64,000 nt of DNA from Acidobacteriota bacterium (GCA_016199625.1 JACQGI010000039.1:2379-66378), one strand, 5' to 3'; shown: positions 34,091 to 50,326, counted from the first letter of the stretch. The notes: generated by a model from the sequence alone, not told the origin. Numbers and translations: made by a program.

Positions 34091-34318
34091 GTGGCCGTTT
34101 TCCTGTCCGTGCTCAGCACCCTCCTCGTGGGGCTGATCCTCGTCGTGGCGCCCTGGACCGACTGGTGGGACGCCAACTACCTCCTGCACCCGGCCGTCCG
34201 CTCTCTGGTGCTCAACGCCTTCACCCGCGGCGCCGTGACGGGCCTCGGGCTCGTCAACATCCTCCTGGCCCTCTCCGAGACGCGCGAACACCTGGCGGGG
34301 CGTGGTGACCACGCCTGA
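34091..34318 (+). CDS. Small hydrophobic membrane protein (hypothetical, 75 aa).
   Basis: GTG start. Two predicted TM helices. Third-position GC is very high. Confidence 0.4.
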   Translation: MAVFLSVLSTLLVGLILVVAPWTDWWDANYLLHPAVRSLVLNAFTRGAVTGLGLVNILLALSETREHLAGRGDHA

Positions 34319-34379
34319 GCGGCGGTCACGGAGGCCCCGCAGCGCGAGCCCGCCGGCGGACGATCCGGCGGAACCCTGA

Positions 34380-35852
34380 GTGATGGCCAACACCTGGCTG
34401 CTCGTCCCGGTCACACTGGCCTCACTCCTCGCCCTCGCACGCCTCGCGCGGCTGCGACCCGCGTTCCGTCCGTTGCTGGCCCCGTTCGCCTTGACGTCGG
34501 CCGCGGTCGTGGGCTGGGATCTGATCACGGGGCGCCCCCTTCCCGCCGAGGGCTGGGCGGCTCTCGTCTTCCTGGTCCCCCTCCTGATCCTGCTCGTGCG
34601 GGTGACGGTGCTCGCCTTCCAGTGGCTCTTCGAGCGGCGCAACCGGCAGCGGGCGCCCGCTCTCCTCGAGAGCGTCGTCTCGGTGCTCCTCTACGGCGTC
34701 GGGACCGGGATGATCGCACACCACTGGTTCGGCGTGGAGTTGACCCCGTTCCTCGCGACGTCGGCGGTCGTCGGGGCCGTGGTCGGCCTGGCGCTGCAGG
34801 AGACCCTCGGGAACCTCTTCTCCGGGATCGCCCTCCACACCGAATCGCCGTTCCGCGTCGGAGACTGGGTGCGGATCGGAGACCGGGACGGGCGAGTGGA
34901 GCAGGTCTCGTGGCGGGCCATGCGCCTCCGCACGTGGGATGGCGACACCCTCACGATCCCGAACAACGACGTCTCGCGGCACGCGATCCTCAACTACAGC
35001 CTTCCGGGCTCCCCCCACTCGCGAGTGCTGGTGATGGGGGTCAACTACAACACGCCCCCCAACACGGTGATCTCGGTGCTGCGGAGCCTCCTGGACGAGG
35101 TGAAGGCCGTCGTCCAGGACCCCCCGCCGGTCGTCCGCGTCATCGGATACGCGGACTTCGTGATCCAGTACGAGGTCCGCTACTTCATCCGGTCGTACGA
35201 GGACTACCGGACGGCCGAGGGAGAGGTCTTCCGTCTCATCTGGTACCACTTCCGTCGTCACGGCATCGAGATCCCGTTCCCGATCCGGAACGTCTACCTG
35301 CACCCGGTCGAGAAGGCTGCCGACGCCGCGCCTGCGGGGCTGTCGCGCCTCGAGCGGGCGCTGCGGGCCATCGACCTCTTCCGCCCCCTGTCCGACGACG
35401 AGCTGCGGACCGCAGCGGCCTCGTTCCGCCTGCTCCACTATGCCGCCGGCGAGAAGATCATCGAGGAAGGCGCGCCCGGCGACAGCTTCTTCGTCATCGA
35501 CCGGGGCGACGTCGAGGTGTCGAAAGTCATCGGGGGCACGCGCCGCCCGCTGGCGCGGCTCATGGAGGGGCAGTTCTTCGGGGAGATGGCCCTGCTCACG
35601 GGAGAGCAGCGGAGCGCGACGGTGGTCGCCGTGACCGACGTGGACGTGCACACCATCGACAAGGCGGGCTTCGAGCGGATACTCGTGGCCAACCCCGCAG
35701 TCACCGTGGACATCTCCACGATCCTCGCGGAGCGGCGCGAGGCCCTGTCCCAGGCCACCCACGACATCACGGCGCGCTTCGAGCCCGCTGCGTCGAGCGG
35801 CGAGCTGAAGCAGCGGATATTGGACCGCATCCGGAGCTACTTCGGCCTCTGA
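34380..35852 (+). CDS. MscS-family mechanosensitive channel fused to a C-terminal cyclic-nucleotide-binding domain.
   Basis: The MscS pore/beta domain reads LQETLGNLFSGIALHTESPFRVGDWVRI...GRVEQVSWRAMRLRTWDGDTLTIPN. The C-terminal cNMP domain reads FVIDRGDVEV...FFGEMALLTGEQRSATVVA. Confidence 0.8.
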   Translation: MMANTWLLVPVTLASLLALARLARLRPAFRPLLAPFALTSAAVVGWDLITGRPLPAEGWAALVFLVPLLILLVRVTVLAFQWLFERRNRQRAPALLESVVSVLLYGVGTGMIAHHWFGVELTPFLATSAVVGAVVGLALQETLGNLFSGIALHTESPFRVGDWVRIGDRDGRVEQVSWRAMRLRTWDGDTLTIPNNDVSRHAILNYSLPGSPHSRVLVMGVNYNTPPNTVISVLRSLLDEVKAVVQDPPPVVRVIGYADFVIQYEVRYFIRSYEDYRTAEGEVFRLIWYHFRRHGIEIPFPIRNVYLHPVEKAADAAPAGLSRLERALRAIDLFRPLSDDELRTAAASFRLLHYAAGEKIIEEGAPGDSFFVIDRGDVEVSKVIGGTRRPLARLMEGQFFGEMALLTGEQRSATVVAVTDVDVHTIDKAGFERILVANPAVTVDISTILAERREALSQATHDITARFEPAASSGELKQRILDRIRSYFGL

Positions 35853-35880
35853 GAGGCCGCGACGGGCGGGCGAAGGATCC

Positions 35881-36654
35881 ATGGCAGCCGAGCGTGAGGC
35901 CGGGACCGACGCGCTCTTCGCCGAGCTCCTGCGCGCGGGCGAGAGCGCAACGGGGATCGCGGGGTTCCTGGCGGGTCACGACCTGGACGACGCAGCGATG
36001 GTGGCCCTGCTGCGCAAGCCCGTGCCGGTCCGCTTTCTGGAGCGCGTGGCCTCGGCACCCCCGTGGTCCGATCGCCCGCGCGTCCTCGGCGTCCTGGTCC
36101 TGAACCCGCGAACGCCGCGCACCCTGGCGCTGCGCCTCCTTCCGGGCCTCTACTGGCACGACCTCGCAGAAGTGGCCGCGAGCCCCCGTGTTCCGAGCGC
36201 CATTCGCGTGCGCGCAGAGGCGCTCCTGCAGGACATGCTCCCGGAGCTGCGCCTGGGCGAGCGGATCGCCCTGGGCCGGATGGCCACCCCGGTGGTCCTG
36301 CGCCTCCTGCTCGAGGACGCGGAGCCCATGGTGGTGAGGGCGGCCCTCGACAACCCCAGGCTGCGCGAAGAGGACCTGCTCCTGGTCCTGCGGCGAGACA
36401 CGGTGCCGCCCGGCCTCGCGCTTCTCAGGGAAATCGCCGGGTCGCGGCGCTGGCTGGCGTGCTATGCGGTGCGCCTGGCTCTGGTGCTGCAGCGGCGGAC
36501 GCCGCTGCCCATCGCCCTCGCGCAGCTCACGTCGCTCGTCGGGCGCGATCTGCTCCGCATCGCGCAAACCCCCGACCTCATTCCTCTCCTCCAGGCCGCG
36601 GCGGTCCGCGTGGCCCAGGAGCGGGGAGGCGGAGACCGGGGGCCAGCCGCCTGA
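35881..36654 (+). CDS. Helical-repeat (leucine-rich repeat variant / HEAT-like) protein, hypothetical.
   Basis: NPRTP and NPRLREEDLLLVL repeat motifs. GAAGGA sits 5 nt upstream of the ATG. Confidence 0.45.
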   Translation: MAAEREAGTDALFAELLRAGESATGIAGFLAGHDLDDAAMVALLRKPVPVRFLERVASAPPWSDRPRVLGVLVLNPRTPRTLALRLLPGLYWHDLAEVAASPRVPSAIRVRAEALLQDMLPELRLGERIALGRMATPVVLRLLLEDAEPMVVRAALDNPRLREEDLLLVLRRDTVPPGLALLREIAGSRRWLACYAVRLALVLQRRTPLPIALAQLTSLVGRDLLRIAQTPDLIPLLQAAAVRVAQERGGGDRGPAA

Positions 36655-36665
36655 GCCACAAAGAT

Positions 36666-36695
36666 TTGACACGTTTCGTGGCGGTCCGATAGAAT
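36666..36695 (+). promoter_or_regulatory. Near-consensus sigma-70 promoter, TTGACA-N18-TAGAAT, upstream of rodZ.
   Basis: Read directly, about 60 nt upstream of the rodZ ATG. Confidence 0.5.
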
Positions 36696-36757
36696 CCGCC
36701 TGTTCCTCCGTCCGCGGACTCCTGAAACGGTGAACGCAGGCGAGCCTCGGGGCACCC

Positions 36758-37513
36758 ATGGCCTCCTTCGGTGAAAATCTCCGCAGGGAACGCGAGCTTC
36801 GGGGGATCGGCCTGCGTGACATCGCCGACGCCACCAAGATCAGCATCCGTTTCCTCCAGGCTCTCGAGCAGGACCGCGTCGACGTCCTGCCCGGCGGCAT
36901 CTTCCGTCGCGCTTTCGTGCGCCAGTACGCGCGTTACGTGGGCCTGGACGCCGAGCGCATCGTGGCGGAGTTCCTCTACGCGCACGGCGAGGAGCCCGCC
37001 CCGAAGCCGCCCGAGGCCGACCCCAAGCCGCCGGGACGACGGGGCGGACTGGTCGTCGTGGGCCTTCTCCTCGCCGGTACCGTGATCCTGGCTCTCCTCG
37101 GGCGCCGCGACGCGCCGGTCCCCGAGGCCGGGGCGGCGACCCCCGTGGCCCCCGTGGCCCATGCCGACGACCGCGTGTACCCCCCTCCGTCGTCCCAGCC
37201 CGAGCCCGAGGAACCGGAGGGCCTCGTGCTCACCCTGAGCGCGCGGCAGAGCTGTTGGGTCGCGGCGCAGGTGGACGGCGCGACCGTGCTGAACCGCGTG
37301 ATGAACGAGGGCGAGACGGAGACACTGGAGGCCGCGGGGGAGATCGTCCTCTCGGTGGGCAACGCCGGCGGGCTGACGTTCAGCGTCAACGACAAGCCGG
37401 GTGTCCCTCTGGGGCGCAGCGGCGAGGTGCGGCGCAACATCGTGATCACGCCCCAGAGCCTCCCGTCCCTCGTGCAGGACTCTCCGTCGCCCCAGGCTTC
37501 CCACAGCAGCTGA
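36758..37513 (+). CDS. rodZ: Cytoskeleton protein RodZ-like (HTH_XRE - TM - DUF4115).
   Basis: N-terminal HTH (LRRERELRGIGLRDIADATKISIRFLQALE). A single TM segment (GGLVVVGLLLAGTVILALL). A C-terminal DUF4115-like beta domain (LVLTLSARQSCWVAAQVDG...LSVGNAGGLTFSVND). Confidence 0.7.
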   Translation: MASFGENLRRERELRGIGLRDIADATKISIRFLQALEQDRVDVLPGGIFRRAFVRQYARYVGLDAERIVAEFLYAHGEEPAPKPPEADPKPPGRRGGLVVVGLLLAGTVILALLGRRDAPVPEAGAATPVAPVAHADDRVYPPPSSQPEPEEPEGLVLTLSARQSCWVAAQVDGATVLNRVMNEGETETLEAAGEIVLSVGNAGGLTFSVNDKPGVPLGRSGEVRRNIVITPQSLPSLVQDSPSPQASHSS

Positions 37514-37519
37514 TCCCCC

Positions 37520-38617
37520 ATGGCCGAGCCCCGGGCCGCCAACCCCCTGGTCGACGAGTTTCGCAAGGGCGGCGTCCCGAAGGAGCTTCGTGTGATGGCC
37601 GCCCAGGGGGCGCTGCCTCTCAAGCCCGAAGACCTGGTCGACCTGCTCCACCACCTCCTCGGGGATCCCGACGAGAGCATCCGGCAGGCCGCGGAAGGCA
37701 GCCTGATGGCCTTCCCGGTGGACGAGATGCTCCCGATCCTGCGGGACCGCGCGACGCCGCCCGCGGTGCTCTCCTGGGGACTCGCCCACCGCGTCGAGCG
37801 CGAGCTGCGCGAGGTCGCCCTCCAGAACACTTCGACGCCCGACGAGGCCGTCGAGGCCACGGCACCCTCGCTCCCCGAGGCCCTGGCCGAGCTGGTGGTG
37901 ATCAACCAGGTGCGCCTGCTCCGGCGGACGTCCCTCCTCGAGGCCATCGAGTCCAACCCCGAGCTCAACAACGACCAGCGCCGCCGCCTGCGGGAGCTGC
38001 GCGAGACCTTCCGCATCGGTGAGGAGGCGGAGCCGGCGGCCGCCGTCCCGCAAGCCCCCCCCGCGCCCGCCGAGGCTGCGCCGGAGGAGGCGCCGGCCGA
38101 GGAGACCTTCGAGGAGCTGCCGCTCTCGGAGGAGGAGGCCGTGGTCCGCTACCTCTCCGAGGAGGAGCGCCAGCAGACCGAGAAGGTGGGCGCCGTCCAG
38201 AAGCTCTACCGTCTCAACACCGCCGAGAAGGTCATCACCGCCCTCAAGGGCACCCGCGAGGAGCGGGCCATCCTCGTGCGCGACCCGAACCGGATCGTGG
38301 CCACCGCGGTGCTCGGGAGTCCCAGGATCACCGAGGCCGAGATCGAGAGCTTCGCCTCGATGAAGAACGTCTCCGACGCGATCCTCCGCCAGATCGGGAC
38401 CAATCGCGACTGGACCAAGCGGTACGGCGTGGTGGCCAGCCTCGTGAAGAACCCCCGGACGCCCCTGGCCATTTCCCTGGGCATGGTTCCGCGCCTCAAC
38501 CCCAGGGACATCAAGAGCATCGCCGTGGACCGCAACGTCCCCGAGGCGATCCGCAAGCAGGCCCAGCGCTTCATCCGGGCGGCGCAGAGCGGTCCGGGCG
38601 AGAGGAACAAGCACTGA
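37520..38617 (+). CDS. LRV/HEAT-like repeat protein with an acidic central linker (hypothetical).
   Basis: The C-terminal repeats KNPRTPLAISLGMVPRLNPRDIKSIAVDRNVPEAIRKQA share the NPRTP motif with the 35881 gene. The ATG lies 7 nt after the rodZ stop. Confidence 0.45.
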   Translation: MAEPRAANPLVDEFRKGGVPKELRVMAAQGALPLKPEDLVDLLHHLLGDPDESIRQAAEGSLMAFPVDEMLPILRDRATPPAVLSWGLAHRVERELREVALQNTSTPDEAVEATAPSLPEALAELVVINQVRLLRRTSLLEAIESNPELNNDQRRRLRELRETFRIGEEAEPAAAVPQAPPAPAEAAPEEAPAEETFEELPLSEEEAVVRYLSEEERQQTEKVGAVQKLYRLNTAEKVITALKGTREERAILVRDPNRIVATAVLGSPRITEAEIESFASMKNVSDAILRQIGTNRDWTKRYGVVASLVKNPRTPLAISLGMVPRLNPRDIKSIAVDRNVPEAIRKQAQRFIRAAQSGPGERNKH

Positions 38618-38620
38618 TCC

Positions 38621-39238
38621 ATGGCGGACTACTACGACATCCTCGGCGTGTCGCGCGGGGCGAGCAGCGGCGAGATCCGCCAGGCCTACCTGCGCCTGGC
38701 CCGCGAGAAGCACCCGGACCGCTTCGCCGACCCGGGCGAGAAGGAGAAGGCGCAGAGCCTCTTCCAGGACGCGACGGCCGCCTTCAACACCCTGTCGAAC
38801 GAGCGGAGCCGGCGGGAGTACGACGCGGAGCTGGCGCGGCCGAAGCTGACGACCCCGGAGGAGATCGCCAGGGACGCTTACGCCCGCGGGCTGCAGAGCC
38901 TCCAGGCCCGCGACTACCAGTCCGCCGTCGAGCTGCTCCGCAACGCGGTCCACCACGTGGCCGACGACGCCCGCTACCGCGCCGCCCTCGCCCAGGCCCT
39001 CGTGCGGAACCCCCACTGGGTCCGCGACGCCATCCACGAGATGGAGAAAGCCATCGAGATCGCTCCGCTGCAGGCGCCCTACCACGCGCAGCTCGCCGAG
39101 ATGTTCCACGGCCAGGGGCTGCGTCTCAGGGCGCGGAAGGCCCTCGAGAGGGCCGCGGAGCTCTCTACCGACGATCCGGAGGTCCGTCGCGTCTCGGCGC
39201 TCCTCGGCGAGGACGCCGGCGAGGCGGACCGGCGGTGA
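38621..39238 (+). CDS. J-domain (DnaJ-like) protein with C-terminal TPR-like helices.
   Basis: DYYDILGVSRGASSGEIRQAYLRLAREKHPDR carries the HPD motif. TPR-like pairs follow. Confidence 0.7.
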   Translation: MADYYDILGVSRGASSGEIRQAYLRLAREKHPDRFADPGEKEKAQSLFQDATAAFNTLSNERSRREYDAELARPKLTTPEEIARDAYARGLQSLQARDYQSAVELLRNAVHHVADDARYRAALAQALVRNPHWVRDAIHEMEKAIEIAPLQAPYHAQLAEMFHGQGLRLRARKALERAAELSTDDPEVRRVSALLGEDAGEADRR

Positions 39239-39311
39239 GCCGCGGGGCTTGCCTGGGGCCGCCTTTCGGTGTCTACTCAGTGGCCGCGGCCCCCCAACGG
39301 TTCCGAGGACG

Positions 39312-40076
39312 ATGAAGATCACCTACCAGGCGCTCACCGACGTCGGCAGGAAGCGCAAGGGGAACGAGGACAGCCTCTTCGTCAACCCCGAGCAGAACCT
39401 CTTCGTCGTGGCCGACGGCATGGGCGGCCATGCCGCGGGGGAGGTGGCCTCCAAGGTCGCCGTGGAGTCCATCAACGAGTTCGTCTGCCTCACGAGCGGG
39501 GACGAGGAGATCACCTGGCCCTTCGGGCTGGACGAGAACATCTCCTACGACGGAAACCGCCTCAAGACGGCCGTCCGCTACGCAAACCGAAAAGTCCTCG
39601 AGGCGATGAAGGAGCGGACCGAGTACGAGGGGATGGCCACGACGGTCGCCGCCGTGCTCGTGGACGCCGACACGGCCAATCTGGCCCACGTGGGAGACAG
39701 CCGTGTGTACCTATTCCGTGACGGCGCCCTCAGCCAGCTCACCAGCGACCACTCGTGGGTCAACGAGCAGATCCAGAGCGGCATCATCTCCGCCGACCAG
39801 GCCCGCACCCATCCGCTCCGCAACGTCGTGACCCGCGCCCTCGGGGGGAAGCCCGATCTGCAGGTGGACATGCAGTCCCACAAGATGCAGGCGGACGACC
39901 TCCTCCTGCTCTGCTCCGACGGCCTCACCACCATGGTCTCCGACGAGGAGATCGCACGGGTCGTCTCCGAGGCGGCCCTCGACGTGGAGGCCGGCGCCAA
40001 GAACCTGGTGGCCGAGGCCAACGCCCGGGGCGGCGAGGACAACATCACCGTCCTGCTCATCCGCTTCCAGGAGTAG
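39312..40076 (+). CDS. PP2C-family Ser/Thr protein phosphatase.
   Basis: GRKRKGNEDS, VADGMGGHAAGE, CSDGL and GGEDNITV motifs. Confidence 0.85.
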   Translation: MKITYQALTDVGRKRKGNEDSLFVNPEQNLFVVADGMGGHAAGEVASKVAVESINEFVCLTSGDEEITWPFGLDENISYDGNRLKTAVRYANRKVLEAMKERTEYEGMATTVAAVLVDADTANLAHVGDSRVYLFRDGALSQLTSDHSWVNEQIQSGIISADQARTHPLRNVVTRALGGKPDLQVDMQSHKMQADDLLLLCSDGLTTMVSDEEIARVVSEAALDVEAGAKNLVAEANARGGEDNITVLLIRFQE

Positions 40077-40080
40077 CCCC

Positions 40081-42198
40081 GTGGTTCCCGCCGGCGAGAC
40101 CGCCGCCCGCCCGCGCAAGCGCATCGGCAAGTATCTGGTGACCGGGCGCATCGGCCGCGGCGGGATGGGGATGGTCTACCGGGCCTGGGACGAGGTCCTC
40201 GAGCGCGAAGTGGCCGTCAAGACCCTCACCGTCGAGGGGACCCTCGACGAGGAGAGCCGCAAGCGATTCGAGATCGAGGCGAAGGCCGCTGCCCGGCTGC
40301 AGCACCCCAACATCCTCACGGTGTTCGAGCTGGGAGAGGACCGCGGCGTCCCCTTCATCGCCATGGAGCTCCTGCCCGGCATCGACCTCGAGGCGCTCCT
40401 GCGGTCGGCGGAGGAGATCCTGCTCCAGGAGAGGCTGGACGTGGTCGTGCAGGTCTGCCGCGGCCTCGCCTACGCCCACGAGCATCGGATCGTCCACCGC
40501 GACATCAAGCCCTCGAACATCCGGATCCTGGACGACGGCAGCGTCAAGATCATGGACTTCGGTATCGCCAAGCTCCAGGGGACCGGCGTCACCAAGGCCG
40601 GGATGATGGTGGGGACGGTCCACTACATGAGCCCGGAGCAGATCCGCGGCAAGAGCCTGGACGGACGCAGCGACGTCTTCTCCGTCGGAGTGATCCTCTA
40701 CGAGATCCTCGCAGGCCGGCGCCCCTTCTCGGGGGAGACGGCTACGGAAGTGCTCTACCGGATCGTCCATGAGCCTGCGGCGCCGCTTCCGCTGCCCGAG
40801 GATCTCGGGTCCGCCGGACCGCGGCTCCAGGAGATCGTGGACCGCGCCCTGGCCAAGGAGCCCGACCAGCGCTTCTCGAGCGCGACGGAGATGGCCGACG
40901 CCGTCGCAGGGGTCCTCCTTGCTCACCGGCGCCCCGGCGCCGACCCGGCGCAGGAGCAGGAGGCCGTCGCCGCCGCACGGCGGCTCCTCAAGGAGGGCCG
41001 TGCCGAGGAGAGCCTGCGGCACCTCCGCGAGCTGGCCGAGAGGCGCCCGGACTCCCTGGACCTGCGCCGCGCGCTCCGCGCGGCCACCCGCGAGACCCAG
41101 CGGCGCCAACGGGCCGCCGAGCCCGCCGCGGAGGAGTTCCCGGAGCTCGATGCGACTTTCCAGGCGCCCCCGACGCAGATGAGCCCCGAAACGGCGACGG
41201 TGCTGCAGCCGACGGAGCTGGCGGCGCGCCACTCGGCGGTCGGCCCGCCGCGGATCGGAGTGTGGATCGCCGTCGGTGTGGGTGCGGCACTCGTCGTGGG
41301 GGGGGGCCTCGCGGTCCTGCTGCGTGGGGGTCCGGGGGAGGACGTCGTGGGGGGGCCCGTGAAGGTTGCCGTCCGCTCTCGGCCGCCGGGTGCCGTGGTG
41401 CTGCTGGACGGCAAGGAGACCGGCGTCGTCACCGACGGCGAGGTGTTGCTCCCCGAGCCTCGGCGCGGCCTCGTCCGTCTGACGTTCCGCAAGGACGGGT
41501 TCCGGGAGGAGACGCGGACCATCGCGCTGCCGCTGCCCGACGGCGAGGTCGTGTCCGTCACCCTCGGCCCTGCGCCCGCCGCCGTCGCAGTGGTCACCGA
41601 TCCGCCCGGCGCCAGCGTCACCCTCGACGGCCAGCGCGTCCCAGGCACGACGCCCCTCGACCTCCGCGTCGACCCCTCGGCAGAGCATCGCCTGACCCTC
41701 GCCCTCGACGGCCACGCGTCCCAGGAGGTGCGCCTCGCGGCCGGCCGCGTCCCGCCCCAGGTCCGCGTGGGGCTGTCGCCGTCGGGTCCCATGGGCTCGG
41801 TCACCGTCACTGCGAGCTACCCTGTGGACGTCGTCTGGCGCGGGCGGATTCTCGCGAGGGGCCAGACTGCGCCGCGCGTGAGCGTCCCCCAAGGGCGCCA
41901 AGTGCTGACCCTGCTCTCTCCCGGCGTGTTCCTCCGTGCCAACGTCACGGTGGAAGTCCGCCGCGAGACGGCCGTGGCGGCCCCTCCCCTGGGCACGCTG
42001 AACATCCGCGCGACGCCCGACAACTGCGAGGTGTTCGTCGACGGCGCCTCGGTGGGCTACCTCCCGATCCTCGACAGGCCCGTCAGCGCCGGTCGTCACG
42101 CCGTGCTCTTCCGTTGGCCCGACGGCGGCCGCAGCGAGGACGCCGTCGAGGTGGTGGCGGGACGCCCCGCCTTCGTCGTGGGGCGGAGGGACCCATGA
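40081..42198 (+). CDS. Hanks-type Ser/Thr protein kinase with a TM segment and two C-terminal PEGA domains.
   Basis: GRGGMGMVYRA...VAVK, HRDIKPSNI and DFGIAK motifs. A TM segment (IAVGVGAALVVGGGLAVLL). Two RSRPPGAVV.LDG / TDPPGASVTLDG PEGA-like beta domains. Confidence 0.85.
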   Translation: MVPAGETAARPRKRIGKYLVTGRIGRGGMGMVYRAWDEVLEREVAVKTLTVEGTLDEESRKRFEIEAKAAARLQHPNILTVFELGEDRGVPFIAMELLPGIDLEALLRSAEEILLQERLDVVVQVCRGLAYAHEHRIVHRDIKPSNIRILDDGSVKIMDFGIAKLQGTGVTKAGMMVGTVHYMSPEQIRGKSLDGRSDVFSVGVILYEILAGRRPFSGETATEVLYRIVHEPAAPLPLPEDLGSAGPRLQEIVDRALAKEPDQRFSSATEMADAVAGVLLAHRRPGADPAQEQEAVAAARRLLKEGRAEESLRHLRELAERRPDSLDLRRALRAATRETQRRQRAAEPAAEEFPELDATFQAPPTQMSPETATVLQPTELAARHSAVGPPRIGVWIAVGVGAALVVGGGLAVLLRGGPGEDVVGGPVKVAVRSRPPGAVVLLDGKETGVVTDGEVLLPEPRRGLVRLTFRKDGFREETRTIALPLPDGEVVSVTLGPAPAAVAVVTDPPGASVTLDGQRVPGTTPLDLRVDPSAEHRLTLALDGHASQEVRLAAGRVPPQVRVGLSPSGPMGSVTVTASYPVDVVWRGRILARGQTAPRVSVPQGRQVLTLLSPGVFLRANVTVEVRRETAVAAPPLGTLNIRATPDNCEVFVDGASVGYLPILDRPVSAGRHAVLFRWPDGGRSEDAVEVVAGRPAFVVGRRDP

Positions 42199-43679
42199 GG
42201 CGGGCCGCGGCGTACGCCGCCTGTGCGATGCTGCTCCTCGCGGGATCCGCTTCGGCCCAGTCCTCCCCCGATGAGCAGGCCCGGAGGCTCCTCGAGGACG
42301 GGAAGCAATACTTTGGCAAGGGGCAATACAAGCAGGCCCTCGACAACTTCAACACCATCGCGACGGGCTTCTCGGCCACCGATTCCGTGGACGACGCGCT
42401 CCTCGAGATCGGCCGATATCACCTCGAGGTGGACGGCGACGTGGAGAAGGCCCGCGCCTCATTCGAGCAGGTCGCCCAGCGGTACCCCCAGAGCGACGGC
42501 GCCCCCGGCGCCTACTACTACCTCGGCTGGCTCACCATGACGCGCGCGGCCGGTGCGGCGGAGCTCGACGACGCTCTGGCGCAATTCGACCGGATCCGGA
42601 CCCTCTACCCGCGGAGCGACTGGGTCGCCCGGGCCTTCTACGCCTCGGGCCTCGTCCACCGCAAGGCGGGCCGCTTTGCCGAAGCGGTGGAGGCGGAGCG
42701 CCGCGTGGCCCTCGAGTACCCCACGAGCGAGGCCGCTCCCGCGGCCCAGTTCCAGATCGGACACTGCCTCGCCCTCATGGGCGAGCACGGCGTCGCCATG
42801 GAGGAGTACCAACGCGTCCGCAACCGGTTCCCCGAGAGCGAGTGGGCCGCCCGGGCCCTCGACCGCACCACGACGCTCTACCGGCTCTACGCAACCGCGA
42901 GCCCGACCTTCGCCCCCGACCCGTCCGTGTCCTTCGGGGCCGGGGACGTGCTGCGGGACGTCCGCGCGATCCTCATGACGCCCGATCGCACGCTCTGGGT
43001 GGCCTCCGACAAGACCCGCAGCGTGGTTCCCTTCGACGCCGAGGGCAAGATCGGCTCGAGCATCCCCGCCGAGAACATCCGGGCGCTGTCGTTCTCCGCC
43101 AAGGGGGAGCTCCTCGTCGCGGCGAGGTCCGCCGTCCGCATCGGCCCGAAGGACATCAAGTCCTTCGCCGTTCCGACGGACAAGCCGGGCGTGCCGGAGC
43201 CCCTGGAGGACATCGGGGCCGCCGTCATCACCGCCGGCGGCAACATGCTGATCGCCGACGGGAAGAGGAACCGCGTCTACCGGTACGACCGGCAGTTCCA
43301 GTTCCTGGGCACCTGGCCCGACGGGAAGGAGCGCGAGGTGCGACGCCTCGTCCTCGACGGTGAAGGGGCCGTCGTCCTCCTCGACGCCAAGGACAAGACC
43401 GTGCAGGTCTACGACGAGTCGGGGCGGCTCCTGCGCTCGTTGGGGGGCAGGGGTACGGCGTCCGAGTTCCGCAAGCCCGTGGACGTGGCCGTGGACGCCG
43501 CCCGCAACCTGTACGTCGCCGAGGAGGAGGGCCCGGTGCGGATCTTTTCCCCGGACGGAAGGCTCCTCGGCTCCCTGGCCAGCGACGAGGTGCGGCGGCC
43601 CCGGGCCCTGACCCTGGATCCCTCGGGGGCCGTGCTCGTGTACGACGACAAGGCCCAGAGGGTGATCCGCTTCAAGTGA
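42195..43679 (+). CDS. Secreted TPR (YbgF-like) - NHL/beta-propeller repeat protein.
   Basis: Signal peptide MRRAAAYAACAMLLLAGSASA. N-terminal TPRs. C-terminal repeats of the type NLYVAEEEG.VRIFSPDGRLLGSL. ATGA overlap with the kinase stop. Confidence 0.65.
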   Translation: MRRAAAYAACAMLLLAGSASAQSSPDEQARRLLEDGKQYFGKGQYKQALDNFNTIATGFSATDSVDDALLEIGRYHLEVDGDVEKARASFEQVAQRYPQSDGAPGAYYYLGWLTMTRAAGAAELDDALAQFDRIRTLYPRSDWVARAFYASGLVHRKAGRFAEAVEAERRVALEYPTSEAAPAAQFQIGHCLALMGEHGVAMEEYQRVRNRFPESEWAARALDRTTTLYRLYATASPTFAPDPSVSFGAGDVLRDVRAILMTPDRTLWVASDKTRSVVPFDAEGKIGSSIPAENIRALSFSAKGELLVAARSAVRIGPKDIKSFAVPTDKPGVPEPLEDIGAAVITAGGNMLIADGKRNRVYRYDRQFQFLGTWPDGKEREVRRLVLDGEGAVVLLDAKDKTVQVYDESGRLLRSLGGRGTASEFRKPVDVAVDAARNLYVAEEEGPVRIFSPDGRLLGSLASDEVRRPRALTLDPSGAVLVYDDKAQRVIRFK

Positions 43680-43686
43680 GCATGCG

Positions 43687-45858
43687 ATGAAGGTGTGGCT
43701 CCTCGGCCTGGCCCTCCTCGCGGCACCGCCCGCCGCCGCGCAGCAGACGACGCCGCCCGCGGACCCCGCCCAGAAGGAGCTGCAGGCCGTCCAGGATCTC
43801 CTCGGCAGGGCCACGGCCGACTTCGAAGGGGCACAGCAGAGCCGTTCGATCGTCCTCCTCGATGAGATCATCACGCGGCTCGAGACCCTGCGGAGGATGG
43901 AGAGCCTGGCGCCCCGCGGGCGCGAGATGCTGGCCCAGGCCTACGAGATGCGCGGCCGGGCGTACTTCAACATCGGTTTGCAGGAGAAGGCCTCGGACAG
44001 CTTCCGCTCCCTGGTCCAGCTCCAGCCCCAGTACGCGCTCTCGAAGGAGAAGGTCTCCCCGAAGATCGTGGAGTTCTACGCGTCGGTGAAGAAGGGCCTG
44101 GTGGGCTACCTCGCCGTCTCCTCGAAGCCCGCCGGCGCCAGGGTCACGTTGAACGGCGAGTTCCTGAGCGTCACCGACTTCTTTCCCCTGGAGGTCCTCG
44201 CGGGGGACTACGCCGTCGAGGTCTCCCGTGAGGGCTACCGGAGCGAGGCGCGCACGGTCAGCATCGCGCCCCGGGCCACGGAGGCTCTCGACGTACCCCT
44301 CACGCGGGTCTCGGCGAGCTACTTCTTCCTCACCGAGCCCGCCGGCGTCGAGGTCTGGGTGGACGGGGAGCTGAAGACGACCACCTCGGGAGCACTCGCT
44401 CCGGACCAGGCCGAGGAGGTGCGCGGCAGGGGCGTCGACCCGGCGCGGTCGTCGACCTGGACCGAAGTGGCGAACCTCTCCCTGGGAACGCACATGGTCG
44501 AGCTGCGGAAGAAGTGCCACGAGCCGGTCAAGCTCACACTGGACGCCGCGGAGCCCAGGGACTACAACGCCGAGCCGATGCGGATGGAGGAGTCGCTGGC
44601 CTCGCTCCGGCTCGAGTCGGATCCGCCCGGAGCGCGGATCCTCATCGACGGCGAGTCCATGGGGCTGACGCCGAAAGAGCTCGACAACCTGTGCTCGGGC
44701 CGGCACCGGATCGAGGTGAAGCACGCCTCGGGCAAGTTCATCCAGGACGTGGTTCTGGCCAAGGACGAGGCCCTCTCGCTCAAGTGCCCGATCCGTCCGA
44801 GCCTCGCATTCCTCGGCGTGGTGGCCGAGAGCGCCGGTGCGGAGCGCGTCGCTGCCGACGCGGAGGAGAAGCTCCTCCAGAACCTGTCGCGGATCACGAC
44901 GCTGAACTTCGTCCCGGCGCCCAGGGAGACGGTCGACCGCATCCTCGAGGGAGAGAAGCTCACGCGCGGTGGGCTCATCCCCGGCGCGGGGACGGACCCC
45001 GACCTGGTCCGGAAGGTCACCGAGAAGCTGGCCTCGACCCTCGAGGTCCAGGGCTTCCTGATCGCGCTGCTCCCCGAAGAGCGGCTCCAGCGGACGGCGA
45101 TCCTGCATCTCCTGGCGGCGGGGAACACGGTGACGGATCGCTGGGACGTCACTTTCGGCGAGGCCGCGTCGTACCTTCGCTTCCTCTCCGCAGTGGACCA
45201 GAGGGTGCCGCTCTACCGCCCCTGGACCGGTCTCGTGACGGTGGACACGCACCTCCACGACGGCGTCCCCGTGCTGCGGGCGGCGCCCGGGAGCCCGGCC
45301 GCCGTTGCGGGGATACAGCCCGGCGAGGTCCTCTACGCCGCCGACGGCCGGCCCGTCAAGCGCACGGCCGACCTGCTGGCCATCGTGGACGCCAAGCGGC
45401 CGAAGGAAAAGGTCGCGCTCCACCTCAGGGGAGCTTCGGGAGATCGCGCCGTGGAGGTCACCCTCGCGCAGACCCCCCAGGAGATCCCCCTGAACGACCC
45501 GACGCTGCTCTACAACAAGATCATGGTGGACCTGCGCCAGGAGGTCGAGGGATACCCCGGCACGGAGTCGGCGGCCTTCGCGAGGCTCAACCTCGCCCTG
45601 TGCGCCATGCACTTCGGCGACTATGCCGCCGCCCACGAACATCTGCTCAAGGCCCGGGCTGAGCTGCCCAACCGGCCCGGCCTCTCGCAGGGCACGGCCC
45701 TGTACTACCTGGGCGTGGCCTTCGAGCGCCTCGGGGACAAGTACCGCAAGGAGGCCGGAGACGCCTATCGCGCCGCGGCGGGCTTCAAGGACGCCACGCT
45801 CTTCGACAACGACGGGCCGGCCGTGGCGCCTCTCGCCGCCCGCCGGGTGGGGTCGTAG
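43687..45858 (+). CDS. Secreted multidomain protein: TPR - PEGA x3 - PDZ - C-terminal TPR.
   Basis: Signal peptide MKVWLLGLALLAAPPAAA. PEGA-like segments (SSKPAGARVTLNG, TEPAGVEVWVDG, ESDPPGARILIDG). A PDZ domain (GIQPGEVLYAADGRPV). Confidence 0.65.
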   Translation: MKVWLLGLALLAAPPAAAQQTTPPADPAQKELQAVQDLLGRATADFEGAQQSRSIVLLDEIITRLETLRRMESLAPRGREMLAQAYEMRGRAYFNIGLQEKASDSFRSLVQLQPQYALSKEKVSPKIVEFYASVKKGLVGYLAVSSKPAGARVTLNGEFLSVTDFFPLEVLAGDYAVEVSREGYRSEARTVSIAPRATEALDVPLTRVSASYFFLTEPAGVEVWVDGELKTTTSGALAPDQAEEVRGRGVDPARSSTWTEVANLSLGTHMVELRKKCHEPVKLTLDAAEPRDYNAEPMRMEESLASLRLESDPPGARILIDGESMGLTPKELDNLCSGRHRIEVKHASGKFIQDVVLAKDEALSLKCPIRPSLAFLGVVAESAGAERVAADAEEKLLQNLSRITTLNFVPAPRETVDRILEGEKLTRGGLIPGAGTDPDLVRKVTEKLASTLEVQGFLIALLPEERLQRTAILHLLAAGNTVTDRWDVTFGEAASYLRFLSAVDQRVPLYRPWTGLVTVDTHLHDGVPVLRAAPGSPAAVAGIQPGEVLYAADGRPVKRTADLLAIVDAKRPKEKVALHLRGASGDRAVEVTLAQTPQEIPLNDPTLLYNKIMVDLRQEVEGYPGTESAAFARLNLALCAMHFGDYAAAHEHLLKARAELPNRPGLSQGTALYYLGVAFERLGDKYRKEAGDAYRAAAGFKDATLFDNDGPAVAPLAARRVGS

Positions 45859-45860
45859 GA

Positions 45861-46184
45861 GTGCCCGCCGCGCGCCTGGTCTGGGAGCGAGGCGACGGCT
45901 CCCGGGTCGAGTTCCCCCTGACCGCCGACGTGCTGGTCGTGGGGCGCGACGAGGAGGCGGACATCCGCGTCGACGAACCCCTCGTCTCCCGGAACCACGC
46001 GCGCCTCGAGCGCCGGGGCGAGGCCTGGGTGGTCCTCGACCTGGGCTCGACCAACTACACCCGCGTGAACGGCGAGGTGGTCTCCGAGCGCGCGCTGCGA
46101 CACGGGGACGAGGTGCGCTTCGCCCGCGCGCGGTGCACCTTCCTCGCCGCAGCGGGCGCCGATCCCGTCGCCGGAGGGGTGTAG
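45861..46184 (+). CDS. Small stand-alone FHA-domain protein.
   Basis: VVGRDEEADIRVDEPLVSRNHARLERRGEAWVVLDLGSTNYTRVNG. GTG start 3 nt after the previous stop. Confidence 0.7.
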   Translation: MPAARLVWERGDGSRVEFPLTADVLVVGRDEEADIRVDEPLVSRNHARLERRGEAWVVLDLGSTNYTRVNGEVVSERALRHGDEVRFARARCTFLAAAGADPVAGGV

Positions 46185-46185: not shown

Positions 46186-47769
46186 TCAGGGTCCCGCTGC
46201 GCGGGGCTGCGGGCGGACGTCGTAGAGGACGTAGTCGCCGCGATCGTGGGCCACGGGGTAAGGAAGCTCCAGGCGTGGCGTGCGGGCGCGGTCGACGAGC
46301 ACGTGGGTGACGCGCCAGCGCTGCAGGATGGCCCCCCGCGTCGCGAGATCCGCGCGCGGGTCCAGGAAGCGATCGACGTCCAGCACGCGCTGCCAGCCAC
46401 CCGCCGCCACCAGGAAGAGGTCGGGGTGCTGGGGTGCGACGACCTTGCGCCCGGCGAGTCCCGCGACGCCGTTGGCCGTGTCGCGGTCCGCGAGGACCAC
46501 GGCATCCTCCGGGGTGAGGCGTGCCACGAAGGCCAGGTCGGGCCTCTCCTGGCCGAGGAGCCAGCGCACACGTGCCCCCATCGAGAGGGCGCCGGCGGCG
46601 AGGAGTCCCACGGCCAGAGCACGCCCCCACCGGCCCCGCGCCCACGCGAGGTCGAGGAGGACCGCGGCGCCGATCTGCAGCGGGAGCGCCGCGAAGAAGA
46701 CGAAGCGCTCCCGCAGCGGGAGCACCGGGCAGAGGGCCAGCGCGACGTCCACGGCGAACCAGGCGACGAGGAAGGCGCGTCCGGACCCCGATACCAGCAC
46801 CGCTCCCACCAGGCCGAAGACGGCCGGCCCCAGGACGGCCACGAGCGGGACCACGAACGCCGCGGGATCGAGGGCTAGGGCGGCGCTGCTGACGAGGGCG
46901 GCCCCGCCTGCCGGCGGCACGCTCACGAGGCCTCCGGGGGCGGTCTGGCGCAGGCCGGGGTGGGCCGCGGCCTCGAGCAGGCCCAGGACAGGGTAATACG
47001 GCCACAGCGCCGCGAGGGCCAGGCCGGCCACGGGCAACCCGACGAGGAAGGCGGTCCGCGGCGCGCTCGCGGTGCGCCGGGCGAGGCCGACCCCCCCGAG
47101 TGTGACCAGGGCCGCCGCCAGGGCGAGAGCCGTCAAGGGGTGCGTGGCCACGAGGGCCGCCGTGAGCGCCACGGCGGCCGCGAGGGCGTGCGGTCGCGGC
47201 AGGCCCCGCTCGCCTCCGGGCGGAGGGAGGACGAGGCGCAGCACGAGGAGGAACAGCACCAGGCCGGCCTGGTGCGGGTAGAAGAAGTTCTGGGCGTCGG
47301 CGAGGGACGTCGTCCCCGGCCATCGCCAGGACGGCCACGAGATCGTGGCTCCGGGCCACGGTCCCCAGAGCAGCACCGCCGCGAGCAGGGACCATTGAGC
47401 CGCTCCCTCGCCGGCGAGTCGCGCCGTCGTGGCGCGCAGCGCGAGGGCGAACGCCAGGAGGTTGGCGAGGCCCGCAGCGTAGAGCAGATGGAGGGGATCC
47501 GTCCCCGTGAGGCGCGCCATGGCCCCCAGGAGGACGAGGTAGGGGCCGTAGTGACCCTGGGGGAGCCCCTCGTGCACGACGAGGTTGTGTTTCGGAGGGA
47601 ACTCGCCTTTGGCCAGCTCGCGAACCGCGGCCATGTGGTGCATGGCGTCGGTTCCGAGCCCGGCGCGCAACGGTGCATCGGCGTAGTACAGGGCCGCCAG
47701 GGAGACGCCGGCGAGGGCGACGCAAGCGGGGTAGAGCCCGTCGGTTCGCGAGGGACGGCCCGGCTTCAC
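46186..47769 (-). CDS. Polytopic integral membrane protein with a C-terminal soluble domain (possible ArnT/PMT-like glycosyltransferase; function uncertain).
   Basis: More than 10 hydrophobic helices. GTG start at 47769 overlaps the upstream EAL gene stop (GTGA). The family assignment is a guess. Confidence 0.5.
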   Translation of the reverse strand: MKPGRPSRTDGLYPACVALAGVSLAALYYADAPLRAGLGTDAMHHMAAVRELAKGEFPPKHNLVVHEGLPQGHYGPYLVLLGAMARLTGTDPLHLLYAAGLANLLAFALALRATTARLAGEGAAQWSLLAAVLLWGPWPGATISWPSWRWPGTTSLADAQNFFYPHQAGLVLFLLVLRLVLPPPGGERGLPRPHALAAAVALTAALVATHPLTALALAAALVTLGGVGLARRTASAPRTAFLVGLPVAGLALAALWPYYPVLGLLEAAAHPGLRQTAPGGLVSVPPAGGAALVSSAALALDPAAFVVPLVAVLGPAVFGLVGAVLVSGSGRAFLVAWFAVDVALALCPVLPLRERFVFFAALPLQIGAAVLLDLAWARGRWGRALAVGLLAAGALSMGARVRWLLGQERPDLAFVARLTPEDAVVLADRDTANGVAGLAGRKVVAPQHPDLFLVAAGGWQRVLDVDRFLDPRADLATRGAILQRWRVTHVLVDRARTPRLELPYPVAHDRGDYVLYDVRPQPRAAGP

Positions 47770-48995
47770 TCGGGGCCGGGGTCGGGCCGCGCCAGATAGA
47801 AGCCCTGGCCATAGTCGACCCCCATGGACTGCAGCGCCCGGCACTCCTCCTCGGTCTGGATCCCCTCGGCGATGACCGTGGCGCCGATGCCGTGGCCGAG
47901 GGAGATGATGGCCTTGACCATCTCCCGGTTGACCACGCTCGAGTGCACGTCCCGGATGAGCGAGGTGTCGATCTTGAGGAAATGGGGCTTGAGCCGCGCG
48001 ATGGCCTCGAGGCCGGAGTAACCCGCGCCCACGTCGTCGACGGCGAAGGACATCCCGAGGTCGGTGAAGTAGGCCATGGTCTCGCGGAAGAGGCCGTAGT
48101 TCTCGATGACGAGCTTCTCGGTGATCTCGATGACGATCCTGTCGGGGGAGACCTGGGCCCGGTCGAGGAACTCGATGAGGGGCCGGCCCCGGAACTGCGG
48201 ATCGCGGATCGTGGCCGGCAGCGTGTTCACGAAGAGTCGCGCGTTCGAAGGCACCCGTCCCGACGAGAGCAGGGCTCGAGCGCGGCAGAGCCGGTCCAGC
48301 TCCACCATGAGGCCGTGCTCTTCGGCGGCTCCGAAGAGCCCATCGGCCGTCTCGAGGCCCGTGCCGCGCGCCCCACGGGACAGGGCCTCGAAGCCCAGCA
48401 CGGTGCGGTCCTTCATGAGGAGGATGGGCTGGTAAGCCGTCACCACACGCTCCCGCACGATGAGGTCCTGCAGCCGCTCCCGGACCTGGATCTCCTCGGT
48501 CTTCCGGTGATGGCCGGCCTGGTCCAGTGCGCTCCGGAAGGCCTGGCTCACGATGCGGTCCGTCCCGACCAGGGGGTTGTAGAGGGCGATGGCGTAGCCG
48601 AGGTCGATCCGCGGCGGCGTCTTGAGGTAGGGGAACGCCGTGCGCGCCACGTTCGGCGCGAGGGACGTCAGCAGGCGCGTCCAGACGGCCCTGAGGTCGG
48701 TGAGGGACAGCGAGAGGTTCTTCCGGCGCTTGCGCTCGAGGAAGATCAGGAGCCGGAGCCCACGGGGCTCGTCGAGGGCGAGGATGTCTCCGCCGCGGAA
48801 GTCCTTGCCGCGCTGTTCCCGGAGCAGCTTGAAGAGGCGCTGGCGCACCTCCTCGTAGGCCTCGGACCCGTACGTGGACTCTACTATTCCGAGGGACGAC
48901 GCGTCCATGATGACGAGCCCGAGGTTGCCCCGCTCGGCGAGCTGCGCCTGGAGCTCCGGGACGCGCTCATGGTAGGTGGGGACCGGCTCGGTCAT
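47766..48995 (-). CDS. EAL-domain c-di-GMP phosphodiesterase with a degenerate GGDEF-like N-domain (paralog B).
   Basis: YQPIL, EAL(SR), NARLFVN, EITE, DDVGAGYSGL and KIDTSLIR motifs. ATG at 48995 overlaps the stop of paralog A (ATGA). Confidence 0.8.
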   Translation of the reverse strand: MTEPVPTYHERVPELQAQLAERGNLGLVIMDASSLGIVESTYGSEAYEEVRQRLFKLLREQRGKDFRGGDILALDEPRGLRLLIFLERKRRKNLSLSLTDLRAVWTRLLTSLAPNVARTAFPYLKTPPRIDLGYAIALYNPLVGTDRIVSQAFRSALDQAGHHRKTEEIQVRERLQDLIVRERVVTAYQPILLMKDRTVLGFEALSRGARGTGLETADGLFGAAEEHGLMVELDRLCRARALLSSGRVPSNARLFVNTLPATIRDPQFRGRPLIEFLDRAQVSPDRIVIEITEKLVIENYGLFRETMAYFTDLGMSFAVDDVGAGYSGLEAIARLKPHFLKIDTSLIRDVHSSVVNREMVKAIISLGHGIGATVIAEGIQTEEECRALQSMGVDYGQGFYLARPDPGPE

Positions 48996-50326
48996 GCGGC
49001 CCCGTCCACGGGCACGAGCACCGGCGGGGCGAGGTACCGCCCCTGCCCCAGCTTCACTCCCATGTCGCGGAGGGTCCTGAACTCGGACTCGGCCTCGATC
49101 CCCTCGGCGATGACCTCTGCGCCGATCTTCTCCGAGAGCTCCACGAGGGTCTCGAGGAGGCTGCGCTTGATGAGGCTGCGATCGATGTTCCGCACGAGCG
49201 AGATGTCGAACTTGAGGTAGTCGGGCTCGATCTCGACCACCGCCTGCAGGCTCGAATAACCGGCCCCCATGTCGTCGATGGCGATGCCGAAGCCCTCGGC
49301 CTTGAGGGTGCGCAGGACCTCCTGGTACGCCTGGCGCTCCCCGACGGCCACGCGTTCGGTGATCTCGAGGATCACGTCGGCGTGGTCGAGCCCCTGGCGC
49401 TCGACCTCCTCGATGAACCCCGGGCCGGCGACCTCGGGGTCCCGCAAAGCCCCCGCAGAGGTGTTCAGGAAGAGTTTGTTGCCCCTCCGGAGGTGCCGGC
49501 GAGCCGAGGCGAGGGCCCGGCTCCGGCAGAGGCGCTCGAAGTCCACCAGCCGGCCGGTGCGCTCCGCGAGGACGAACAGGCCCTCGGCGTCCTCGAAGGC
49601 GCTCCCCGCGGGGCCGCGGGTGAACACCTCGTGGCCCAGGACCGTGAGGTTCCGGAGGTCGAGGATGGGCTGGTACAGGGTGACCACCTGTCGGCTCCGG
49701 ATCAGGTCGTCCAGGCTCTGGGCCCGCCGGTCCTCCTCGCGGCTCCGATCCTTGAGGCACATGAACATGGCCTCGTCCAGCGCGCGGTGCACCGATCGCT
49801 CCGCGCGGAGCATCGGGTCGCGGTAGAGGAGAGCGTGGCCCTCGTGGAAGAGCAGCGGCACCGGGATGCCGTCGGGGAGGTGGCGGGGCAGCAGCGTGTC
49901 GAGGCGCTCGCGGAGCCGCGCGGCGAGGGCGTCCACGCCGGGGCGGTCCAGGGCGGCGGGGCCGGGGCCTCCGGCGCAGAGCAGGAACTTGTCGCCCCGC
50001 ACCGCGAGGACGGCGATGATGTCACGGGGGCCGAGCAGGCCTTCGGGGCGCAGGGCACCCAGGGCCTGCGAGAAGCCCCGCACGACCTCGTCGTAGGCGT
50101 GCCAGCCGTGTAGGGACTCGATGGGCGCGTTGGCCCCGAGGTCGAGGTACACGAGGCCGAGGGTGCCCCGCTCCTCGACCAGGCGCCGGACGTCGTCGAG
50201 GACGGCGGCCAGGGTCGGAAGCTCCGTGTTGGTGTCGAAGACGTGGTTCTTGAAGCGCAGCCACTCGCCGCGGAGCCTGAAGTATTCCTGCTCCTCCGGG
50301 CCGGTGCGCGCCATGGCCATGCTCAC
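48992..50326 (-). CDS. EAL-domain c-di-GMP phosphodiesterase with a degenerate GGDEF-like N-domain (paralog A).
   Basis: YQPIL, EVF(TRG), NKLFLNTS, EITE, DDMGAGYSSL and KFDISLVR motifs. The start overlaps the receiver gene stop. Confidence 0.8.
   Translation of the reverse strand: MSMAMARTGPEEQEYFRLRGEWLRFKNHVFDTNTELPTLAAVLDDVRRLVEERGTLGLVYLDLGANAPIESLHGWHAYDEVVRGFSQALGALRPEGLLGPRDIIAVLAVRGDKFLLCAGGPGPAALDRPGVDALAARLRERLDTLLPRHLPDGIPVPLLFHEGHALLYRDPMLRAERSVHRALDEAMFMCLKDRSREEDRRAQSLDDLIRSRQVVTLYQPILDLRNLTVLGHEVFTRGPAGSAFEDAEGLFVLAERTGRLVDFERLCRSRALASARRHLRRGNKLFLNTSAGALRDPEVAGPGFIEEVERQGLDHADVILEITERVAVGERQAYQEVLRTLKAEGFGIAIDDMGAGYSSLQAVVEIEPDYLKFDISLVRNIDRSLIKRSLLETLVELSEKIGAEVIAEGIEAESEFRTLRDMGVKLGQGRYLAPPVLVPVDGAA

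Follow-up and report, generated by a model that had tools for sequence, protein, structure and literature searches.

A PEGA-type Ser/Thr kinase encoded with two exported partner proteins: a candidate envelope-sensing operon in Acidobacteriota

How does a bacterium with two membranes monitor the state of its envelope and pass this information on to the cytoplasm? Cell-wall surveillance by Hanks-type Ser/Thr kinases is well understood in monoderms only, in which these enzymes use PASTA domains, and the coupling between envelope and growth in diderms outside the Proteobacteria is largely unknown. Acidobacteriota are abundant, poorly studied soil bacteria. The DNA analysed here, a 64,000-nucleotide (nt) stretch from an Acidobacteriota bacterium (GCA_016199625.1, JACQGI010000039.1:2379-66378; hereafter the window, with a G+C content of ~71%), raises this question because positions 38621-46184 had been predicted to encode a Ser/Thr phospho-signalling module with exported components. 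On balance, the locus is probably a chromosomal operon for transmembrane Ser/Thr phospho-signalling that reads the state of the periplasm or envelope, and as such probably a hitherto undescribed means of envelope monitoring in a double-membraned bacterium. The deepest-conserved part of the locus is a kinase that is encoded together with two exported proteins.

G+C content at the third codon position (GC3, 0.88-0.96), combined with a listing of open reading frames (ORFs), picks out a run of + strand genes at 30947-46184. Within this run, the interval 38621-46184 holds six genes (G1 to G6, Table 1), namely those for a J-domain/TPR protein, a PP2C phosphatase, a Hanks-type kinase, an exported TPR-NHL protein, an exported TPR-PEGA-PDZ protein, and a small FHA protein. 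The genes are indeed consecutive and co-directional, as originally predicted, and all domains named in that prediction were recovered by Pfam and NCBIfam scans and by motif reading, but its count of seven genes has to be reduced to six.

The kinase G3 is a bitopic protein of the RD type. It consists of a kinase domain (residues 20-269; Pfam Pkinase, 174 bits), a helical, Thr-rich juxtamembrane region, one transmembrane (TM) helix (391-416), and periplasmic modules (418-705). The motifs that define a Hanks-type kinase are intact, i.e., GxGxxG (GRGGMG), VAVK, HRDIKPSN, DFG, and SPE. Among the orthologues, DFG and S/APE are kept in 27/27 and HRD in 25/27 sequences under a strict regular expression, so the catalytic K, D, and DFG residues are not degenerate; the same is true of the PP2C and FHA motifs described below. 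Threonines that could be phosphorylated are also conserved: in 55 orthologues the activation-loop residues T171 and T179 are kept in 100% and 98%, respectively, and the juxtamembrane positions T359, T365, T371, and T378 are S/T in 84-95%. The best NCBIfam match is PknB_PASTA_kin (NF033483), at 324.8 bits against a cut-off of 450, and G3 is hence not a member of this family. The match covers only the kinase part (residues 16-319, profile positions 7-307 of 563), and no PASTA repeat was found in G3 by Pfam scan. Its ectodomain is built of four PEGA-type modules of ~70 residues each (Pfam PEGA, 66 bits). Modules 1 and 2 score above the Pfam PEGA threshold (25.1 and 33.3 bits), module 4 stays below it (17.5 bits), and module 3 has no match; the TM segment and two PEGA domains foreseen for this kinase are thus present, while the total number of modules is twice as high. 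Modules 3 and 4 (residues 576-705), which are membrane-distal and have a poor match to the PEGA model or none, are yet the best-conserved extracellular part of the kinase, with a mean column identity of 0.60-0.70 vs 0.37-0.51 for modules 1 and 2 (55 orthologues).

The two genes that follow encode exported proteins. G4 has a signal peptide with a cleavage site between ASA and QS, a CpoB/BamD-like TPR array, and a six-bladed NHL beta-propeller, which is most similar to a known kinase sensor domain; its AlphaFold2 model was built from 7 database homologues. G5 has a signal peptide with a cleavage site between AAA and QQ, followed by TPRs, three beta-sandwiches, an alpha/beta domain without family assignment (383-503), a PDZ domain (516-592), and C-terminal TPRs (AlphaFold2 predicted local distance difference test score, 75.6). 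Pfam assigns PEGA (76.6 bits), PDZ_6, and PDZ_2 to it. Of the anticipated three PEGA domains plus PDZ, the PDZ domain and three beta-sandwich modules stand, but only two of the three modules exceed the PEGA threshold. The PDZ domain is of the HtrA type (DegP-family PDZ in a profile search of the PDB, E 4e-13). The similarity to DegP, DegQ, and HhoA is confined to this domain (profile positions 530-605), and G5 has no Pfam match to Trypsin_2 or Peptidase_S1, i.e., it is not an HtrA/DegP protease. Sequence reading and Pfam scans revealed no lipobox, protease, or other catalytic domain in either G4 or G5.

G5 belongs to a large family. An exhaustive profile-free search yielded 380 representatives at E<1e-30, and >100 clusters (50% identity) can be aligned from end to end with 24-46% identity; all members inspected carry a signal peptide. 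A 100% identical database protein is labelled PEGA domain-containing and Acidobacteria, and close relatives are labelled Vicinamibacteria. Docking of the G5 PDZ domain on the C-terminus of G3 or G4 was considered as well. Both termini are conserved, but each is the last beta-strand of its domain, and this conservation is not evidence for docking.

Putative cytoplasmic components of the system are encoded on either side of these three genes. G2 scores 267.3 bits against the cut-off of 230 for the Stp1/IreP phosphatases (NCBIfam NF033484) and is a member of this family, with the metal-binding motifs DGMGGH, GDSR, SDG, and EDN kept in 20-22/22 orthologues. G6 matches Pfam FHA with 69.2 bits and contains GR (28-29), SRNH (43-46), and N64; GR is kept in 29/30 orthologues, and SRxH and N are kept as well. 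By its fold model and these residues it is an FHA domain protein and predicted reader of phospho-threonine, which in NCBIfam is OdhI/FhaB-like, under the cut-offs. The protein encoded by G1 resembles a co-chaperone, with a DnaJ domain (65.2 bits) that contains the HPD motif, and with TPR_19 and TPR_14.

Conservation of the gene neighbourhood was assessed in genomes and in metagenomes. The genome set comprised 29 species-representative genomes (G5 59-75% identical), all Vicinamibacteria/Acidobacteriota and without phylum-level breadth. Every locus that is long enough (~20/20 Vicinamibacteria genome loci) contains the complete block with unchanged order and orientation, the order being 257-aa (amino acid) protein, RodZ, HEAT protein, DnaJ/TPR protein, PP2C, kinase, G4, G5, and FHA protein. 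The flanks vary in the same genomes, i.e., an upstream gene for an MscS channel with a cyclic-nucleotide-binding (cNMP) domain is found in only some of them, and the convergent genes downstream are not the same. The metagenome set comprised 80 contigs (G5 41-76% identical, G+C 0.62-0.75), in which a gene was scored only where the contig reaches its expected position (Table 1). The co-conservation proposed as a check on the module is thus borne out, by the genome loci as well as by metagenome counts of up to 67/67. Its recurrence in >100 independent loci places the arrangement far beyond chance, and chance juxtaposition is ruled out by this recurrence across genomes and metagenomes. The bounds 38621-46184 cut through the conserved block, which starts at rodZ (36758), or at 35881 if a paralogous repeat protein is included.

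Nine more distant loci (L030-L038; G5 24-40% identical; G+C 0.36-0.69 in the seven that were measured) separate the core from its additions. In 9/9 of them the PEGA kinase, the TPR-propeller protein, and the TPR-PEGA-PDZ protein are encoded in the same order, with full-length alignment of all three. The proposed hard-wiring of the kinase to two exported proteins is therefore the deepest-conserved feature of the system. The kinase/phosphatase/FHA triad, conversely, is not a universal core, the PP2C, FHA, and J-domain genes being a lineage-specific addition that occurs where G5 is at least ~40% identical. Because the trio is conserved in all nine distant loci, most of them without PP2C, FHA, or rodZ genes nearby, the trio is the ancient functional unit, with rodZ, HEAT, J-domain, PP2C, and FHA genes as a stable lineage-specific addition. 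In L033 (G5 40% identical, G+C 0.60) the full upstream block is present up to G5, where the contig ends, and in L030 a PP2C, a second kinase, and two FHA proteins are encoded upstream of the trio. L030 (6777-10004 on a 963-kb ENA contig) also has its kinase gene and its G4-like gene split into short ORFs in different frames next to an intact G5, either as a decaying copy or as a result of indel errors in a long-read assembly. In L034, a second Hanks-type kinase with a PEGA ectodomain is encoded directly 3' of the trio (12233-14398; contig G+C 0.43).

Within the lineage of the window, the conserved block has the features of an operon. Tight spacing, with overlaps of 4 nt or gaps of 10 nt or less, had been claimed for most genes, and this applies to four junctions, i.e., G2-G3 (4 nt), G3/G4 (a 4-nt ATGA overlap), G4-G5 (7 nt), and G5-G6 (2 nt), but not to G1-G2, which are 73 nt apart. 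This gap would shrink to 10 nt if TTG at 39249 were the start; the G2 ORF is open from there, and the orthologues align from the ATG at 39312. Further upstream, rodZ and the HEAT gene are separated by 6 nt and the HEAT gene and G1 by 3 nt. From rodZ through fha, all gaps are therefore <=7 nt or 4-nt overlaps, with G1-G2 as the sole exception. A sigma-70-type promoter-like site 5' of rodZ matches 11/12 consensus positions, with 0.3 such sites expected per 18.5 kb scanned. TTGACA/TAGAAT hexamers occur at the matching position in 13 related loci, the spacers being unconserved, and 6 further related loci have a TAGAAT/TACAAT -10 box. Because of this conserved promoter-like site, rodZ to fha likely form one transcription unit, which suggests an eight-gene operon at 36758-46184 (rodZ, HEAT/alpha-repeat, DnaJ-TPR, PP2C, kinase, TPR-NHL, TPR-PEGA-PDZ, FHA). 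At its far end, the fha stop codon and that of a convergent 552-aa multi-TM ORF (46186-47844) are 1 nt apart, and there is therefore no space for an intergenic terminator. The convergent ORF is without a Pfam match and is patchy in relatives.

The first genes of this operon give the only concrete clue to its output. RodZ was identified by its N-terminal helix-turn-helix (Pfam HTH_25, 74.8 bits), a single TM helix (94-117), and a periplasmic RodZ_C domain (57.8 bits), and it scores far under the species-level equivalog cut-offs of NCBIfam, as expected for a distant phylum. The HEAT protein combines an N-terminal HEAT_2 match (Pfam, 29.7 bits) with an acidic linker and, at the C-terminus, a module of NPRTP repeats, and has no PDB relative by sequence. 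The 257-aa protein, encoded before the predicted promoter, has no match in Pfam or NCBIfam; it is paralogous to the HEAT protein's C-terminal half (BLASTP E 4e-10) and is present in all long Vicinamibacteria loci, co-conserved with the block. Hence, rodZ is flanked by the genes for two cytoplasmic alpha-repeat proteins that share an NPRTP module of ~70 aa, both co-conserved with the kinase block and both lacking an informative family assignment and a PDB relative.

Table 1. Features of the conserved block in the window and number of metagenome contigs with the gene at its expected position
Feature	Coordinates	Strand	Basis	Metagenome synteny
257-aa cytoplasmic alpha-repeat protein, NPRTP repeats	35881-36654	+	GC3 0.88; synteny	12/13
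Sigma-70-type promoter-like site TTGACA-N18-TAGAAT	36666-36695	+	63 nt 5' of rodZ	
rodZ	36758-37513	+	Pfam HTH_25, RodZ_C; TM helix	13/13
365-aa cytoplasmic HEAT/alpha-repeat protein	37520-38617	+	Pfam HEAT_2	15/15
G1, J-domain + TPR protein, co-chaperone-like	38621-39238	+	Pfam DnaJ, TPR_19, TPR_14	18/18
G2, PP2C phosphatase	39312-40076	+	NCBIfam NF033484; Pfam PP2C_2, PP2C	22/22
G3, bitopic Hanks-type Ser/Thr kinase	40081-42198	+	Pfam Pkinase, PEGA; TM helix	30/30
G4, exported TPR-NHL propeller protein	42195-43679	+	Signal peptide	49/49
G5, exported TPR-PEGA-PDZ-TPR protein	43687-45858	+	Pfam PEGA, PDZ_6, PDZ_2	
G6, stand-alone FHA protein, 107 aa	45861-46184	+	Pfam FHA	67/67

From the predicted localisation of the proteins and the types of their domains, we infer that this system senses the envelope. 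In the mechanism proposed here, G4 and G5 would form a complex with the ectodomain of the kinase and serve as co-sensors or adaptors; the PDZ domain would bind the C-terminus of a peptide, and the propeller together with the PEGA modules a glycan or protein ligand. Ligand binding would change the oligomerisation of the kinase, leading to autophosphorylation of the activation loop (T171/T179) and the juxtamembrane region (T359-T378). The small FHA protein would then dock on the phospho-threonines, and the Stp1-type PP2C would reset the phosphorylation. In this lineage, the targets or adaptors in the cytoplasm are likely to be RodZ, the HEAT/alpha-repeat protein, and the J-domain/TPR protein; because of these likely targets, and in parallel with the PASTA kinases of monoderms, the output may be the control of the elongasome and of cell-wall growth. 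A kinase whose gene is always accompanied by those of two exported partners is a concrete and testable candidate for an envelope sensor, the cassette would give the PEGA domain its first functional context, and an operon headed by rodZ leads to a direct hypothesis of phospho-control of the elongasome in a diderm.

A bolder version of this proposal, put forward tentatively and more doubtful than not, is that the trio forms a tripartite periplasmic receptor, a diderm counterpart of the PASTA kinases that is spread throughout the Acidobacteriota and possibly more broadly. It would sense a peptidoglycan or outer-membrane ligand and, in Vicinamibacteria, directly tune the RodZ/MreB elongasome via Thr phosphorylation that is read by the FHA protein.

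Several points weigh against a role in envelope sensing and in growth control. The evidence is made up of sequence and predictions, and to our knowledge no ligand of PEGA has been established. None of mreB, pbp2, rodA, tol-pal, or bam is found among the annotated ORFs of the window. In five of the distant loci (L032, L034, L035, L037, and L038) the trio has unrelated neighbours, with no PP2C, FHA, or rodZ gene within reach, and because these genes are absent there, the link to RodZ cannot account for what the core does in general. In L031 (1-9972; GCA_016190995.1, an Acidobacteria metagenome-assembled genome), three FHA proteins, a T2SSE/MshEN ATPase, and a 187-aa protein are encoded upstream of the trio and two kinases of ~1300 aa downstream of it, and this setting points to another output in that locus. 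The breadth of the trio is judged from sequence identity and G+C content. Lastly, the TPR array of G4 seems to be of a type related to CpoB and BamD, although membership is narrowly missed in both cases (YbgF/CpoB, TIGR02795, 86.7 vs 90.1 bits; BamD, TIGR03302, 78.0 vs 81.4 bits).

The last point leads to the rival explanation that survives best, which is nevertheless considered unlikely. Information might flow from the cytoplasm to the envelope, with G4 and G5 as scaffolds for envelope biogenesis that resemble CpoB, BamD, or NlpI-Prc, and with a kinase whose ectodomain controls their position or activity, or which is simply anchored to their machinery. This would agree with the near-threshold CpoB and BamD scores of G4, the HtrA-type PDZ domain of G5, the TPR arrays that are typical of scaffolds, and the position of rodZ at the head of the operon. 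However, G4 and G5 lack a lipobox and any protease or catalytic domain, no tol-pal, bam, or penicillin-binding protein genes adjoin the block in any locus examined, and the propeller of G4 is closest to a known kinase sensor domain.

It is less probable still that the target of the module is a pilus, secretion, or motility ATPase, regulated via FHA proteins in the way PpkA and Fha act on type VI secretion, rather than cell-wall growth. The MshEN domain is of a type that binds cyclic di-GMP, and both the L031 locus, with its FHA proteins and T2SSE ATPase with MshEN in front of the trio, and the window itself, with an MshEN-domain protein (53140-54225) and two further FHA proteins, could be taken to point in this direction. 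However, no secretion or pilus ATPase is encoded in or beside the block, either in the window or in the clade loci, five distant loci carry the trio alone, and the MshEN gene of the window lies 7 kb away, past the variable convergent genes 3' of fha. L031 may represent another output wiring of the same sensor core.

That the gene order merely reflects common descent, with genes that work independently and without functional coupling, is very improbable. Some synteny is indeed expected when most loci come from one class (Vicinamibacteria). However, order and orientation of the trio are kept at 24-31% G5 identity and at G+C contents of 0.36-0.69, where all flanks are different, within the clade the block is likewise constant amid varying flanks, and the genes have overlapping start and stop codons and a conserved promoter. 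A Ser/Thr kinase-based anti-phage defence system, such as PD-T4-6 or MADS, is the most remote option and is rejected: the PADLOC matches (PD-T4-6 and mad6 for the kinase domain, PDC-M21C for the PP2C) are confined to generic catalytic domains, the other six proteins (including G1, G4, G5, G6, and the HEAT protein) have none, and the block, which has exported components, is stably and vertically conserved in a housekeeping neighbourhood (ffh, ftsY, rib, rnhB) and has no defence-island context.

The favoured reading, a phospho-signalling operon that reads the envelope, can also be placed in its wider neighbourhood, which includes the housekeeping genes ftsY, ffh, rnhB, and riboflavin genes. A gene for an MscS-type channel fused to a cNMP-binding domain (34380-35852, +) lies between that of a 1042-aa TPR protein and the conserved block. 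It is absent in L008, L009, L017, L019, L022, L027, and L028 and present in other relatives, and therefore marks a variable boundary of the block. Two further FHA proteins, a VWA-FHA protein (5098-6585, -) and an FHA-GAF-adenylate/guanylate cyclase (17433-19139, +), are possible additional readers of Thr phosphorylation, the cyclase being a possible link to cyclic-nucleotide signalling. Signalling proteins are also encoded on the other side of the block, namely a phosphodiesterase of the EAL type (48992-50326, -), a hybrid histidine kinase with a HAMP domain and two receiver domains (50715-53249, -), and the above-mentioned MshEN-domain protein (+); genes for the first two are found close to the block in many, not all, relatives. 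Further envelope- or stress-type regulators in the window are an extracytoplasmic function (ECF)-type sigma factor that adjoins a LiaF-like membrane protein and a DUF4097 protein (1482-3374, -), and an NtrY-like histidine kinase with a sigma-54-dependent response regulator (6571-10206, +).

Four groups of known systems are relevant for comparison, namely, the envelope adaptors CpoB (YbgF), BamD, and NlpI-Prc, the kinase PknD of Mycobacterium tuberculosis, the PASTA kinase modules, and the Thr-phosphorylation pathway of type VI secretion systems (T6SS). With the envelope adaptors the locus shares the TPR array of G4, which is near the family thresholds, and the PDZ domain of G5, which is of the HtrA/Prc type. 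Unlike these, it has no lipobox, CpoB coiled-coil, or protease domain, and no tol-pal, bam, or prc context. PknD (PDB 1RWI/1RWL) is a Hanks-type kinase with a fused extracellular NHL propeller as its sensor; here, the propeller is a separate exported polypeptide that is fused to a TPR array, and the kinase carries PEGA modules instead.

The PASTA modules, i.e., PknB/PstP/FhaA/FhaB with rodA-pbpA in Actinobacteria, and PrkC/PrpC and StkP/PhpP in Firmicutes, likewise consist of a bitopic Hanks-type kinase, for which the catalytic domain of G3 matches NF033483 best, together with a PP2C (here over the Stp1/IreP cut-off) and a small FHA protein. They also share a co-located elongation gene, which is rodZ in the present case, and conserved threonines in the activation loop and juxtamembrane region. 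PrkC phosphorylates RodZ (bioRxiv 10.1101/2020.08.28.272336). In contrast to the PASTA modules, the G3 ectodomain is made up of four PEGA-type modules without PASTA and misses the NF033483 cut-off, the host is a diderm, the operon includes neither rodA nor pbpA, and two obligatorily linked exported partners are present that have no counterpart in monoderms.

The T6SS pathway, consisting of PpkA/PppA/Fha1 with TagQRST in Pseudomonas aeruginosa or RtkS in Serratia marcescens, likewise operates in a diderm with a Hanks-type kinase, a PP2C, and an FHA protein. The operon is not a T6SS pathway itself: G6 scores 28 bits against a cut-off of 120 for TagH/VI_FHA (TIGR03354), no T6SS family was found among the annotated ORFs of the window or in the distant loci shown with Pfam calls, G3 has no vWA-type ectodomain such as that of PpkA, and in their domain content G4 and G5 show no relationship to TagR/Q/S/T or RtkS. 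No PEGA-kinase system with these partners turned up in full-text literature searches, subscription literature being outside their scope. The principle as such is known, since PpkA is activated via separately encoded periplasmic proteins (TagQRST/TagR, RtkS) that bind its ectodomain (PMC6082577), and of the arrangement, which was originally not recognised as a described system, only the particular components appear undescribed. The likeness to PpkA thus lies in the detached periplasmic inputs, which the gene content of the present locus suggests would here be G4 and G5, acting on a PEGA kinase.

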